Shown here piece by piece: positions 33,004 to 42,636 of a stretch of DNA of 64,000 nucleotides; position 1 is the stretch's first letter; each line of letters opens with the position of its first letter. This DNA is from a bacterium (GTDB lineage Bacteria; Bdellovibrionota_C; UBA2361; CALJRW01), in the NCBI GenBank assembly GCA_031385045.1, contig JANNBC010000011.1, positions 8,210-72,209 on the forward strand, in the 5' to 3' direction. The translations under genes and the position numbers were made by a program. Under the pieces are notes generated by a model. It was not told the origin of the DNA. It searched no databases and was given only the letters and a program-made list of their open reading frames with translations.

Positions 33004-36000
33004 TTACTGAGCACTTCCCGTTTCATCTTCTTGCAGACTAGATAACATCTGCGTCAAGATACCTCTCATTGCTTTTCTAGTAGCCGGATCCATCGGAACT
33101 TCAGGAAGAGGCACTGCATTAGGCTGTACTTGCTCAGTACCAGGTGCCCTCTCCTCACTTACAGAATTTATCGGAAGCTCTGAAAGAACCTTTGATGCAA
33201 AAATATTCATCGCGCTATCATTAGGATTAAATTGCAAAACATGAGGATTTTCAACAGGCCTACGAACATAAAACTGGTTAGACCACCTTTCTAAACTATC
33301 GGCTGTTATTACATGATAACCAATCTGGCGAGCACCAATTACCAACCGAAAATACTCATCATGTAACTCCAAATCATCGGAGTAAGCTCTCGGATTATTT
33401 GTAAGTGCTGGTTGATCACTCCTATATGTAAAGTGATTATAAATCTGCATATTTGAATAAACAACATGATACAAATATGCTTGAAATTTTCCTATGGTGA
33501 TTGGATCTGAAACGGAATCAAAGTAAGCTTCCAAAGCTACTATTTTAATTTGATCTTCTTTACTCCATCTCTCCTCGTCATTTCGATCTCGCTCCTCAAC
33601 ATGCCTCTTAAATAAGGCAGCATCGTAAGCTAGCTCTGCAAGTTGCTTACTACTTAGTGTGTTTGAATTAAATGCGTAAACTAATGGATAAATATTAAAA
33701 GGGCTATTCTGTACTAACTCCATAAACTCCTCTGTTTTGACTGTAGGATCAAAACAAGCTCTAAAAAGATTAGCCTCTGCCTTAGTTTCGGTTAGAAGCC
33801 ATACTCCTTCTCTATATTTGATTATTTCACTCCCTGATACCTTTTTTTCGAATGGCACTTGGGCAAATTTATTTAGGTTAGCGATGAAGTCACCTAACTG
33901 CCCATCTAGACTATCAATAAACTGAGAAACCTGAATTTTCTCTCTCGATCTCATTATATCATAGACTTCAATGAAAGGATTATTAGCATTTTCAGCTGCA
34001 AAGCGAATATCATCAATTGCTCGCGATGAGATATTTGCGGACGAAGATAGCTCACCTAACCCTTGAATCGCAAGCAAGGCTTCCTTAACTTTAATAAAAT
34101 GGCGCGCATCACTCTCAAAAACAATCTCTGCGATTGCCTGTAATCTCAACTCTAATCTTCTAGTTAAAGCTGCTTGATCACCATTATGATAATTACGATT
34201 AAAACAATGCATAACATACGGTAGGGCAACTAAAACTGAATGTGCTTCTTGATTTGTATTCGTTTCATCATAATTTTTAAAAATGCGAATTACATCTCGC
34301 ATAATTTGGAACTGCCCCTTCTGCCCGCAACTCTCTCTATAGATATAATTAAAAGTAGTTTTTAATAAGTTTGCTGAATATGGTGCCTGCAGCGACGAAA
34401 ATCCAGTAGCATCATATTCAAATAAACCAGCAGAAATTATATTTCTAAAACCTTGAGTATTTACTCCAGCATCAGTCTCTTGAGATACTAACCTCTCCCC
34501 AACCATCAACTTAGCGATATAGTGGCTTAAAGGGTCTTGTCTGTGGCCTAGAGAAATAGACTGCAACTCTGATATCAATTCAAATTGTCGATTTCTGGAT
34601 TGTTCAAGGTAATAGCGAAGGGCTAAAGCAAAATTTACTACTGGAATAGAGGTCGATCCATTTTCCTTTACAAGCATTAAATCAACTTGTTCAACAAGTT
34701 TGCCGACTAAACTTGGATCTACCTCACTAAACAATGGTAAAGTACTAAATTCTTTTATAAGATCTAAGATTACACTATGCATTGATGTTCTATCTTGAGG
34801 CAAGAGATCATGTTTCATGACTGAAAAAGCAGGAATACCGATGGCATAAGCTTGAGTATCTGCAGCTTTAAGTAACATATCTATTTGAATTGCAGGATGC
34901 TTTGCATTTGATGAAAAAATTCCTCGCTGCTGAGAATCCCCTTTAGTCCTATCTTCAACTTTAATATCTTCTAATAAATATTGGGCTAATTCTGGACCAG
35001 AGATAAATCTTCGATCTCCAAACTGAAGACTTATTAAAGATTCATTAAGTTGACCTAAAAGAATATCATTATCGGTTTTTCTTGAATCTAGTTGCGTATC
35101 TGAACGAAGTGGGATCTTAATCTTATCTACTACCGATTTTCTTTCTTGAATTCCCCATTGCTTCCCATTTATGCCCGGCCTAGCTAGATTATCTAAAGTA
35201 TCAAAGTAGCTTGGGACATCAGTTAATTTATAAAGTAGGATCTCAGGGAAAAATAATTCCCTAAAAATTGGGTTAATTTGCTTCCAGTCTTTCGCCATTT
35301 CAGTTTCGATTTTATCCTTGGATAAATCATTACCAAAGATTACAATCAATTCGAATCTAATAACATGCATGATCTTAGCAAGACGAGTTTGCTCATCGAC
35401 AGCACCTTCAGGGTGAAGCTCCTTATGACGCAAAGCCCAATTCAAATTTTGCAAAAGATCATTCTGACTTCTTGAAGCTTCCGTTCTTAAAGGACTCATA
35501 GTCATAATATCATCATCGCTACCATACGAAAGATACCCACTATCGTTTGGCACTTTATGCAAAAGAAATGTCAGAACTGAATTTTGAACATCAACCATAT
35601 TCCTGACCGCCTCAGGCCAAATACAAAGCTGACAATCCTCAGAATCTTCTGGGAGATTTTTAAATTTAAAATCTGGCTCAAGAATACAATTTAATGTTGT
35701 CGCTAAAATCCTACTTACAACATGAATATCATTTTGAAATCCAGAATAATCTTGATAATGATTAAATGTTAAAACAACCTGATCCCAAAGCAATTTAAAG
35801 GCAATCCTACTTACCTTATCACTAACTGGCCTCTCACCATCTGCTAGACCTAATCTATCTTGAGGAAAGATCAAACCTGCGATTGTTGGTTGCGCAATTA
35901 AAACTAATGAATCAGCAACCGCTTTATAAACAATCTGCAAAGCACTAAGCGAAGAATAATCTCTTTTAAAGTTACCATTTTCTCGAACCTCCTGAATCAG

Positions 36001-40752: not shown

Positions 40753-42636
40753 TTAGGCTGCTGCTGGGGCTTTTGTTTCTGCAGGCTTAACTTTTACACC
40801 AGACTCCTCACGTCTAAATAATTCAGGTTTAGAGGAAAGCTGTGTCTCCAACCATTCATGTGCCTGAAACACATCCCTTTTAGAATCTGCAGCATGCTCT
40901 TTCCCTGGAGTAACATCATCAAGGACAATCTTCTTAAACCTTTTTTCAAATTCAGCCATAATCTTTAACAACTCAACAATCCCATCTGGCTTAACATAGA
41001 AGTCACGGCTACCTCGTAGGAAATCATTACTACTCCCATCTAAAGAAATAGAGGCTTTTGATTCATCAACAGCATTAAACATTGGAACCAAATCTACTTT
41101 TAATTTTGTAACGTCAGTCATTGCTGACAATTTGAGTTCTTCGGATGTAATACTTGTTAAAAAAGACATATCCTTGCTAATTGCAGAGAAGGTTTGATAA
41201 GTCCCATCTTTGTACTTAACTTTCACTGACACAATATCAGTCCCAAGTACTGTTGCTACTTCTGGCGGCAAAGAATTTCTATTAAATAATGTTTTAGATA
41301 AGAAGCGACTCAACTCTCTTCGTGCTGTAACATCTTCCTTAGCAGCAATTGCTAAATCTTGCAGTCCTCGATAAAGCTTACCTGGCTCACTCTTGTCATC
41401 ATTAACTAACTCAAGTGAAGTTAGGGCACTTTTAATTTGACTTGGCCACATGTAACGAATCAGTCCAGTAGGACTTAATACGCTCTTCCCATTCCAAGGA
41501 CTAGTTTGTCGTAGTTCATTTGTAAGCTTTGGATCTGTCCAATACCGCTCATAACTAAAACATACTGTCTTAGGATCTATATTATCTTTCAAACAAGAAA
41601 GCTTTCTTGAACCTGCCGCATAAGAAAGATGGTCATGATTAAAGCCATAAAAAGTAACCATATCCATTACAGCTTCGGGTGCATTTCCATAAAACTTATC
41701 GAGATAGCTAACATAATTTGTCAGCTTTAAACCTTGAGGTTCAAGGTTAAGCCCAGACCAGTTACAATGGCTTGAGATTACATTATTTAACTCAATGGAT
41801 GAGAAGCTACAGAATTCCGTTCTCAAGTTGTGTAACTTTGCGTTATGCACAATCAATTGTCCTTCACATCTATTTTGGATGGCAGATCCTACAAGTTGAT
41901 TTACTATGCCATCAATCTTCTCTCCCGAAAGTGTTTGTCCAAAATCAGGACTAGATTTTGCTGCTTCATCAATATTTTTTATCTTACTAACATTAGAATC
42001 ATTGCTATTTAAAACCCTAATAGCCTCATCTAAACTACTTGCAATTTCTCCACTTGGAAAACCTACACGCACTTTCTCTAATATTCGACTTAATTGTTGG
42101 TTACTAATTTCATCAGAAATATCAAAAGCAACAATAGTTTTACTAAATGATTTGTCAGGTTCTAAATTACTATTAACTACTCCCTTGGCTCTCTGCCCCT
42201 CAGTTTTCCTAAGAGATTCTCCAAGTTCCTTCTGCAATAGCGAGCTATCACTGCGCTCTAGTTCAAGTTTAAAAGCAAACCGTGGCGTATTTTCTAATCT
42301 TTTTGCTGGACGCTCAGTAAAGAATGCTGATAGTTTTTGCATCACAACCACCTGCAATTCTTGATCCATTTTATGATCTACAGCTACTCGGCTGGAATCA
42401 GTTTTATTCTTTTCAGTAACTTCACCTGCCAACTGTTTTATGTTGCTCTTTGCCTTTCTTTGTCTATCGGCAATTCTTTCTGGGTAAAGACGATTCAAAG
42501 TATTATCAAAAGTCTGGCCTACTTTATCAGACCAGTTCCTCGGAGTTCTCGGCATTTGTGCATCTTTTAAAGTGCTTCCAGAAGTTGCTGGGGCTCCTGC
42601 CGTAGAAGATGAAGGTGTAGATGTTGTTTTACTCAT
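40753..42636 (-). CDS. hypothetical protein (627 aa) with Ser/Thr/Ala-rich N-terminus
   Basis: N-terminus MSKTTSTPSSSTAGAPATSGS. No transmembrane segment or recognised domain. Same orientation as the two giant paralogs and directly upstream of them. Confidence 0.6.
   Translation of the reverse strand: MSKTTSTPSSSTAGAPATSGSTLKDAQMPRTPRNWSDKVGQTFDNTLNRLYPERIADRQRKAKSNIKQLAGEVTEKNKTDSSRVAVDHKMDQELQVVVMQKLSAFFTERPAKRLENTPRFAFKLELERSDSSLLQKELGESLRKTEGQRAKGVVNSNLEPDKSFSKTIVAFDISDEISNQQLSRILEKVRVGFPSGEIASSLDEAIRVLNSNDSNVSKIKNIDEAAKSSPDFGQTLSGEKIDGIVNQLVGSAIQNRCEGQLIVHNAKLHNLRTEFCSFSSIELNNVISSHCNWSGLNLEPQGLKLTNYVSYLDKFYGNAPEAVMDMVTFYGFNHDHLSYAAGSRKLSCLKDNIDPKTVCFSYERYWTDPKLTNELRQTSPWNGKSVLSPTGLIRYMWPSQIKSALTSLELVNDDKSEPGKLYRGLQDLAIAAKEDVTARRELSRFLSKTLFNRNSLPPEVATVLGTDIVSVKVKYKDGTYQTFSAISKDMSFLTSITSEELKLSAMTDVTKLKVDLVPMFNAVDESKASISLDGSSNDFLRGSRDFYVKPDGIVELLKIMAEFEKRFKKIVLDDVTPGKEHAADSKRDVFQAHEWLETQLSSKPELFRREESGVKVKPAETKAPAAA

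Follow-up and report, generated by a model that had tools for sequence, protein, structure and literature searches.

Two large paralogous orphan proteins and an unrelated neighbour in a variable interval between pgpA and rnb of a Bdellovibrionota_C bacterium

In total, 64,000 nucleotides of a bacterial contig (GTDB lineage Bdellovibrionota_C; UBA2361; CALJRW01; NCBI GenBank assembly GCA_031385045.1, contig JANNBC010000011.1, positions 8,210 to 72,209 of the forward strand) were analysed, and this whole stretch is referred to below as the window. The subject of the analysis is a tandem pair of genes encoding two large, mutually homologous proteins, paralog A and paralog B, together with a neighbouring gene encoding a protein of 627 amino acids (aa). 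The window is a piece of ordinary bacterial chromosome, which carries uvrB, uvrC, comEC, gcvP, gcvT, folD, the gene for alanine dehydrogenase, minC, minD, pgpA, the gene for an RNB exoribonuclease (rnb), the gene for an extracytoplasmic function (ECF) sigma factor, polA and obg. The three genes under study are found between pgpA and rnb. UvrB of the window is at most 62–64% identical to its counterparts among the 80 loci listed from GTDB representatives, with the top matches scattered over unrelated phyla, whereas the NCBI names of RNB homologs of ~35% identity weakly hint at Bdellovibrionota. For comparison, two related loci were used: L082, from the congeneric NCBI assembly GCA_041740355.1 (RNB ortholog 80% identical), and L084, a 376-kb scaffold (ENA ERZ23491138) of a family-level relative (RNB ortholog 40% identical). 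The features of the locus are as follows.

32359–32862, plus strand: pgpA, core gene and left flank; the product is 78% identical to that of L082 by tblastn (76% over the whole alignment) and 50% identical to that of L084.
32863–42753, no strand: replaceable slot of 9.9 kb, delimited by blastn breakpoints, tblastn and gene maps.
33004–36540, minus strand: paralog A, 1178 aa, ATG start; soluble, acidic, predicted all-alpha, without a known domain.
33328–33489, minus strand: most conserved block of the pair, residues 1018–1071 of paralog A (KFQAYLYHVVYSNMQIYNHFTYRSDQPALTNNPRAYSDDLELHDEYFRLVIGAR), in windows of 60–70% identity.
36541–36686, minus strand: spacer between the paralogs, 146 nt, 19% GC, without an open reading frame of at least 30 aa.
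36687–40460, minus strand: paralog B, 1257 aa, ATG start; built like paralog A, except for two insertions and for the C-terminal tail (about 55 aa), which differs.
37005–37166, minus strand: counterpart of the YNHFTYR...LHDE block, residues 1099–1152 of paralog B.
40700–40737, minus strand: perfect-stem hairpin, probable terminator.
40753–42636, minus strand: gene of the 627-aa protein, ATG start; no domain, Ser/Thr/Pro-rich N-terminus, unrelated to the pair, likely its own transcription unit.
42754–44709, plus strand: rnb, RNB-domain exoribonuclease, core gene and right flank; the product is 80% identical to that of L082 and 40% identical to that of L084.

All of the three open reading frames (ORFs) were found where the original prediction, made from the sequence alone, had placed them, on the same strand and with ATG start codons. 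The frames of 1178 and 1257 codons lie in DNA with a GC content of 36% (37% for the window) and, since frames of such length cannot stay open by chance at this composition, both large ORFs are genuine protein-coding genes. In GC content, GC content at third codon positions (GC3) and codon usage, none of the three genes can be told apart from the large housekeeping genes in the window. The absence of a Shine–Dalgarno motif is not peculiar to them either: a motif of this type precedes only 5 of the 43 ORFs in the window, housekeeping genes included, and translation in this lineage seems to begin mostly without Shine–Dalgarno pairing.

The products of the pair are soluble, acidic and mostly alpha-helical proteins, with net charges of −36 (paralog A) and −29 (paralog B); the 627-aa protein, the N-terminal sequence of which is MSKTTSTPSSSTAGAPATSGST, has a net charge of +4. 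Hydrophobicity windows and inspection of the N-termini bore out the claim that the paralogs have neither a signal peptide nor a membrane segment, and no signal peptide or 19-residue window of membrane-helix strength was detected in any of the three proteins. None of them contains a P-loop or an internal repeat, and for the pair the eight segments hhaligned against each other gave probabilities of at most 1.2%.

Each paralog has its own AT-rich upstream spacer, as had been noted earlier: 146 nt with 19% GC for paralog A and 292 nt with 30% GC for paralog B, versus 37% in the window. The spacer between the paralogs contains a promoter-like ATGATA-18-TATAAT element at positions 36579–36550, which is a consensus match only, the number of such matches in the region being not above that in shuffled sequences. 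The hairpin at positions 40700–40737 starts 16 nt past the stop codon of the 627-aa gene and is followed by AUCAUGUUUUAAUAA; its predicted folding energy is −20.2 kcal/mol (z = −4.31), and 0 of the 200 shuffled sequences fold equally well. The hairpin is a probable terminator dividing the 627-aa gene from the pair, and, as it is located directly 3' of this gene, the latter would be transcribed apart from the paralogs. In addition, as the 627-aa protein bears no relation to the pair, it need not share the function of the latter.

BLASTP alignment of the two paralogs (778 bits; E-value, 0; 38% identity and 55% positives over 1219 columns) extends over residues 10–1121 of paralog A and 13–1202 of paralog B, which agrees with the earlier description of the pair as collinear homologs over nearly the full length; in the MAFFT alignment the identity is 42–43%. 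The identity amounts to 45–60% across residues ~100–460 and reaches peaks of 60–70% (40-column windows), which coincide with the near-identical blocks quoted in the original prediction: EMAKDWK...FFPEIL, IFKNYD.TN...QEAHSVLVALPYV, and Y.YHV.Y.NM.IYNHFTYR.DQP.LT.NPR...DD..LHDE..RLV.GAR, the last of which is present in both paralogs. The identity falls to noise in the two insertions of paralog B, an acidic/Ser-rich one at residues ~893–933 and a second one at ~1013–1075, as well as in the last 55–60 residues of the pair, which are unalignable; the acidic/Ser-rich insertion and the unrelated C-terminal tails were both described before. The N-termini, which had also been said to differ, do so within the first ~10 residues, but align beyond that, from residues 10 and 13, respectively. 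Residues C929, H1036 and D1042 and the LHDE block are invariant between the copies, and, on grounds of sequence conservation, the strongest candidate for a functional site of the pair is its C-terminal block.

The number of nonsynonymous substitutions per site (dN) between the paralogs is 0.58, whereas that of synonymous substitutions (dS; Nei–Gojobori method, NG86) is at least 2.2 and saturated: the same codon is used at 50% of the identical residues, versus 46% expected under full synonymous saturation. The nominal dN/dS ratio of at most ~0.26 is an upper bound only, owing to this saturation, and indicates purifying selection. The saturated synonymous sites show that the duplication is old, and both copies have been kept under purifying selection since then. 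The earlier view of the pair as fast-diverging proteins, if taken to mean relaxed or positive selection, is therefore not upheld by the dN/dS comparison that had been proposed as a check. As the dN between the paralogs exceeds that of any ortholog pair in the comparison with the sister genome (at most 0.17), the duplication probably predates the split from the latter.

Searches of family libraries revealed no family for any of the three proteins in Pfam (E-values up to 1) or NCBIfam (E-values up to 0.01), nothing above noise in PADLOC and PHROGs, and no match among PDB chain sequences, either with single proteins or with profiles (E-values up to 10), so that the description of all three as unannotatable holds. 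A word-indexed search of 5.8 billion clusters with the pair as the query returned only the query itself and its paralog, and an exhaustive HMMER search of 1.84 billion representatives (~15 billion proteins), with a profile built from the trimmed alignment of the pair, again found the two paralogs only. Pattern and tblastn scans with the pair alignment, covering the species genomes of GTDB and the metagenome contigs of JGI, detected no relative of the pair, and neither did a scan of the JGI contigs with the neighbouring rnb or tblastn searches of phage and plasmid collections. Thus, the pair constitutes a new family with exactly two members and no relative detectable in public data. Membership in a housekeeping family or among ubiquitous core genes, which had been named as the outcome that would speak against the original idea, is contradicted by the lack of any library match and by the absence of the pair from the sister locus.

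For the 627-aa protein, which shows no similarity to the pair or to any other ORF in the window, the word-indexed search returned no homolog either, but this negative is weaker, since its 90%-identity cluster is represented by an unrelated ENA fragment of 57 aa (BLASTP E-value, 1.9), which makes the protein invisible to such a search. The contig of this 57-aa representative has no blastn match to the window. Structure prediction with AlphaFold2 (AF2) gave an all-helical but unusable model of full-length paralog A (predicted local distance difference test score, pLDDT, 32), while the C-terminal 226 aa were modelled with a pLDDT of 52 and a predicted template modelling score (pTM) of 0.53, the region of the YNHFTYR...LHDE motif being below 50.

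Comparison of the window with L082 and L084 revealed a collinear gene order in all three: minD–minC, pgpA, three genes on the minus strand, rnb, small ORFs, the ECF sigma factor gene, and polA; minE is also visible in L082, the locus of which reaches that far. In tblastn comparisons of the window with L082, the identity is 99.6% for MinD, 95% for MinC, 92.5% for the ECF sigma factor, 89% for PolA and 88% for GcvT, and the orthologs of the two genomes have dN values of 0.002–0.17 and dS values of 0.5–2.4. The slots, however, hold different cargo. Besides the 627-, 1257- and 1178-aa proteins of the window, there are proteins of 549, 413 and 743 aa in L082, and of 1113, 519 and 590 aa in L084, where they follow an aminopeptidase. 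The cargo proteins of the window have no tblastn match in the loci of either relative. Among the nine cargo proteins, the best BLASTP E-value, the pair itself aside, is 0.037; hmmsearch with the pair profile and filters off detected nothing among the slot proteins of the relatives, and in hhalign neither the pair profile nor the 627-aa protein reached a probability above 1.1% against these proteins. The cargo of the relatives has no significant match in Pfam (five of the six proteins scanned; for the sixth, the 519-aa protein of L084, no Pfam domain is on record) or in NCBIfam and PADLOC (all six), and no signal peptide, membrane segment or Walker A motif is found in any of the nine proteins. 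In L082 (4723–9860) and L084 (3190–9862) the slot genes are tightly packed and operon-like, with gaps of at most 13 nt or stop/start overlaps, in contrast to the cargo genes of the window, which are set apart by the 146-nt and 292-nt AT-rich spacers.

In three further, more distant lineages (JGI 3300042546, GCA_017853915.1 and JGI 3300044971), minC is followed by pgpA, an aminopeptidase gene, pyrF and rnb on one strand, with no insert. This uninterrupted arrangement is likely to be the ancestral state.

The DNA homology between the window and L082 breaks off near the 3' end of pgpA (about position 32853) and sets in again inside rnb (about 42815; blastn). The first ~100 codons of rnb encode a sequence only 31% identical to that of L082, versus 78–94% across the remainder. 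Within the 5' end of rnb (42754–43053, plus strand), either the variable zone extends into the core gene or the N-terminal domain evolves very fast. No integrase, transposase, transfer RNA (tRNA) or phage gene was found in or beside the slot; the flanking genes scanned and the records of the genes called in the surroundings contain no Pfam mobility domain, a search for Rfam families within the slot (E-values up to 0.1) gave none, and no ORF of at least 30 aa is present in the spacers 36541–36686 and 32863–33003. An imperfect inverted repeat of 21 nt (32985–33005 and 42735–42755; 76% complementary) stands exactly at both borders of the slot; as a border element it was rejected, because in AT-rich DNA a repeat of this quality is probably due to chance.

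Taken together, these observations make it rather probable that a replacement hot spot, delimited by pgpA and the 5' end of rnb, carries the pair and the 627-aa gene as species-specific orphan cargo; this degree of confidence refers to the description as hot-spot cargo and not to the function of the proteins. The idea of accessory genes with a fast turnover gains strong support from the hypervariable pgpA–rnb slot of the window and its two relatives. Exchange of the cargo would proceed through homologous recombination between conserved flanking sequences, with no mobile element involved, as suggested by the lack of integrase, transposase and tRNA genes at the borders, the native composition of the cargo, and the presence of a ComEC gene in the window. 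Unsampled genomes that are related to the window and resemble it in composition would have acted as donors. In such a scheme, the pair may have been lost from the sister lineage through replacement, or it may already have been duplicated when it was acquired from a donor of this kind. The cargo genes appear to lie outside core physiology and to be dispensable at the genus level.

Several points weigh against this picture. The hot-spot call rests on three cargo-bearing genomes. The dS values of pgpA and rnb are the highest among the flanking genes (2.3–2.4, versus 0.5–1.5 for MinD, MinC, the ECF sigma factor and PolA), but the flank dS shows no gradient, the synonymous sites being nearly saturated, and no signature of recombination was seen. 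The poor quality of both AF2 models leaves room for a fold shared with a known family. Finally, with regard to an exported function of the cargo, no secretion machinery, chaperone or eukaryote-like domain was found in the 64-kb window, the view of secretion systems covering the window and 2 kb of flank.

Several more specific explanations of the cargo were weighed beside the hot-spot description. One of them is that the pair serves a species-specific role inside the cell, as a large helical scaffold, a cytoskeletal or organelle-like structure, or a regulator, without being exported. The proteins are of cytoplasmic type, acidic and without a signal peptide or membrane segment, both copies have been under long purifying selection over ~1100 aligned residues, and their native codon usage resembles that of large housekeeping genes. 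On the other hand, the sister genome, in which the flanks are 76–99.6% identical, lacks the pair and has unrelated genes in the slot, so that any such role would be dispensable at the genus level; moreover, no repeats or coiled-coil-like periodic architecture are present in the pair. We regard an intracellular role as possible but unlikely, and as about equally likely as an effector-like one.

The latter, tentatively the most likely role of the cargo, would involve interactions with other organisms, the proteins being exported without a Sec signal. The profile of the cargo suits exported interaction proteins, as it is dispensable at the genus level, carried in a variable slot, Sec-independent, large and helical. 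In the more definite form of this explanation, which we likewise consider doubtful, a type III, type IV or type VI secretion system (T3SS, T4SS, T6SS) exports the pair, and possibly the 627-aa protein as well, to act on a host or prey. Both proteins of the pair are large, all-alpha orphans that arose by duplication and lack a Sec signal, and each gene has a separate AT-rich upstream region; the slot is hypervariable, the nine cargo proteins are all soluble and domain-free, and their distribution is lineage-restricted within a variable region. Compared with 64 neighbours, the cargo proteins show lower hydrophobicity over their N-terminal 30 aa (p = 0.003) and a marginal enrichment there in Ser, Thr, Pro and Asn (p = 0.058), although the hydrophobicity contrast is inflated by signal peptides within this 64-protein background. 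Against this explanation stand, in addition to the lack of secretion genes mentioned above, the neighbouring genes (glycine cleavage, alanine/leucine-type dehydrogenases, GH5 cellulase), which resemble those of a free-living degrader of amino acids.

The cassette could also be a novel anti-phage or anti-plasmid system located at a defence hot spot, but this is improbable. In its favour, such hot spots classically consist of several variable genes enclosed by core genes, large cytoplasmic proteins are common among defence systems, and a second variable spot of the window holds ATPases with AAA_14 and DUF4143 domains, a paralog of which (7117–8286) matches the candidate defence family PDC-S01 of PADLOC (E-value, 5e-65). 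Nevertheless, no significant PADLOC match or Walker A motif was found in the nine cargo proteins, and no Pfam nuclease or nucleoside triphosphatase (NTPase) domain in the eight scanned. Furthermore, the pair has no relatives in ~15 billion proteins, whereas defence genes normally spread horizontally, and the genes of the window do not form a tight operon, being separated by spacers of 146 and 292 nt and by the probable terminator after the first gene.

Far less probable is the explanation that the three cargo sets are orthologs which have diverged past recognition, i.e., by hyper-evolution in place and not by replacement. It would account for the presence of exactly three co-oriented domain-free genes at the same place in the window, L082 and L084, and for the recurrence of weak, non-significant matches of two slot proteins (L082_413 and L084_590) on residues ~695–830 of the pair. 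However, the flanks are 76–99.6% identical with dN of at most 0.17, and neutral drift would leave proteins of more than 500 aa alignable or break their frames; the lengths are unlike (627/1257/1178, 549/413/743 and 1113/519/590 aa), hhalign probabilities do not exceed 1.1%, and that the window, too, has three genes is partly a coincidence resulting from the duplication.

The least probable explanation, that of polymorphic toxins with a conserved delivery body, swappable C-terminal toxin tips and cognate immunity genes, finds a parallel in the long shared body and unrelated C-terminal tails of the pair, but all three defining features tested are missing, as no RHS/YD, PAAR, LXG, TPS or other trafficking domain is detected in Pfam or NCBIfam searches, the tails are just 55–60 aa long and without a domain match in place of a toxin-sized tip, and no immunity-gene candidate (ORF of at least 30 aa) exists in 36541–36686 or 32863–33003, while the best-conserved block is situated close to the C-terminus, where a toxin tip would instead be variable.

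Elsewhere in the window, three paralogous genes for AAA_14 and DUF4143 ATPases were identified at 27124–28251 (plus strand), 28355–29494 (plus strand) and 7117–8286 (minus strand). The first two lie between gcvT and minE and are absent from L082, where gcvT directly precedes minE; the gcvT–minE interval is thus a second variable spot. The block at 12221–18301 (minus strand) is nearly without domain matches: it encodes a Gly/Ala-rich protein of 1129 aa, which has a signal peptide and numerous hydrophobic segments, and after it proteins of 316, 219 and 357 aa, of which only the 357-aa one has a weak thioredoxin-like match. A zeta-toxin-like kinase (PF06414; E-value, 5e-15), a typical accessory gene of the toxin–antitoxin type, is encoded at 10002–10562 (minus strand), and a DUF6036 nucleotidyltransferase, also of the toxin–antitoxin type, at 44764–45201 (minus strand); the latter gene is kept beside rnb in the sister genome.

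If the hot-spot description is true, the slot represents a clean natural experiment, in which core flanks are 76–99.6% identical and the cargo is wholly different. Slots of this kind concentrate species-specific adaptive genes, and one filled entirely with proteins of no known family offers, in an uncultivated lineage, compact access to new folds and to new functions in interaction or defence. Within the slot, the pair is the most promising target, as its two constrained copies supply built-in conservation information over ~1100 residues. It may be suggested, with due reserve, that the pair is a new family of exported interaction proteins or a new part of a defence system, and that the slot serves as an "armoury" of orphan weapons, different in each species. 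At present, the locus is a well-characterised unknown, with no mechanism demonstrated.

Species-specific effector repertoires and paralog families are known from intracellular bacteria, e.g., the Dot/Icm substrates of Legionella (SidE family, SdhA) and the chlamydial plasticity zone. Like these, the proteins of the pair are large, mostly helical, Sec-independent, genus- or species-restricted and tandem-duplicated, and are encoded in a variable region of native composition. Unlike them, they have no similar sequence detectable by exhaustive HMMER search, neither a secretion system, a chaperone nor a eukaryote-like domain is in view, and their organism is not known to live in association with a host; the resemblance would be one of general character only. 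Polymorphic toxin systems, as described by Zhang, Aravind and colleagues, combine a trafficking domain, a C-terminal toxin tip and a downstream immunity gene; the pair is comparable to them in its long shared body and unalignable C-terminal ends, but has neither a trafficking domain, nor a variable tip of toxin size, nor a downstream immunity ORF. With defence islands and hot spots, the locus shares the cassette-like variable cargo between core genes and the occurrence of AAA_14 and DUF4143 ATPases at another variable spot nearby, but differs from them in that the cargo scanned is without an enzymatic or NTPase domain or a significant PADLOC match, and in that the pair is without relatives in other taxa.

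According to the literature, hot spots of horizontal gene transfer (HGT) that are free of mobile genetic elements (MGEs) exist in bacterial chromosomes, with a turnover that is proposed to occur via double homologous recombination on the flanking core genes (Oliveira, Touchon, Cury & Rocha 2017, PMC5635113). The pgpA–rnb slot resembles these hot spots in that one core-gene interval holds different accessory genes in related genomes, with no integrase, transposase or tRNA at its borders and a ComEC gene in the window. The hot spots of PMC5635113 are statistical, based on many genomes of one species, whereas three cargo-bearing genomes at genus-to-family distance are compared here; in addition, unlike in those hot spots, all of the nine cargo genes are orphans in the family libraries searched. 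An excess of recombination in the flanks could not be shown, while the other two of the three hot-spot features, namely variable cargo and the lack of mobile genes, were found in the slot. Orphan cargo in a hot spot is a known kind of locus; the protein family to which the pair belongs is itself new.

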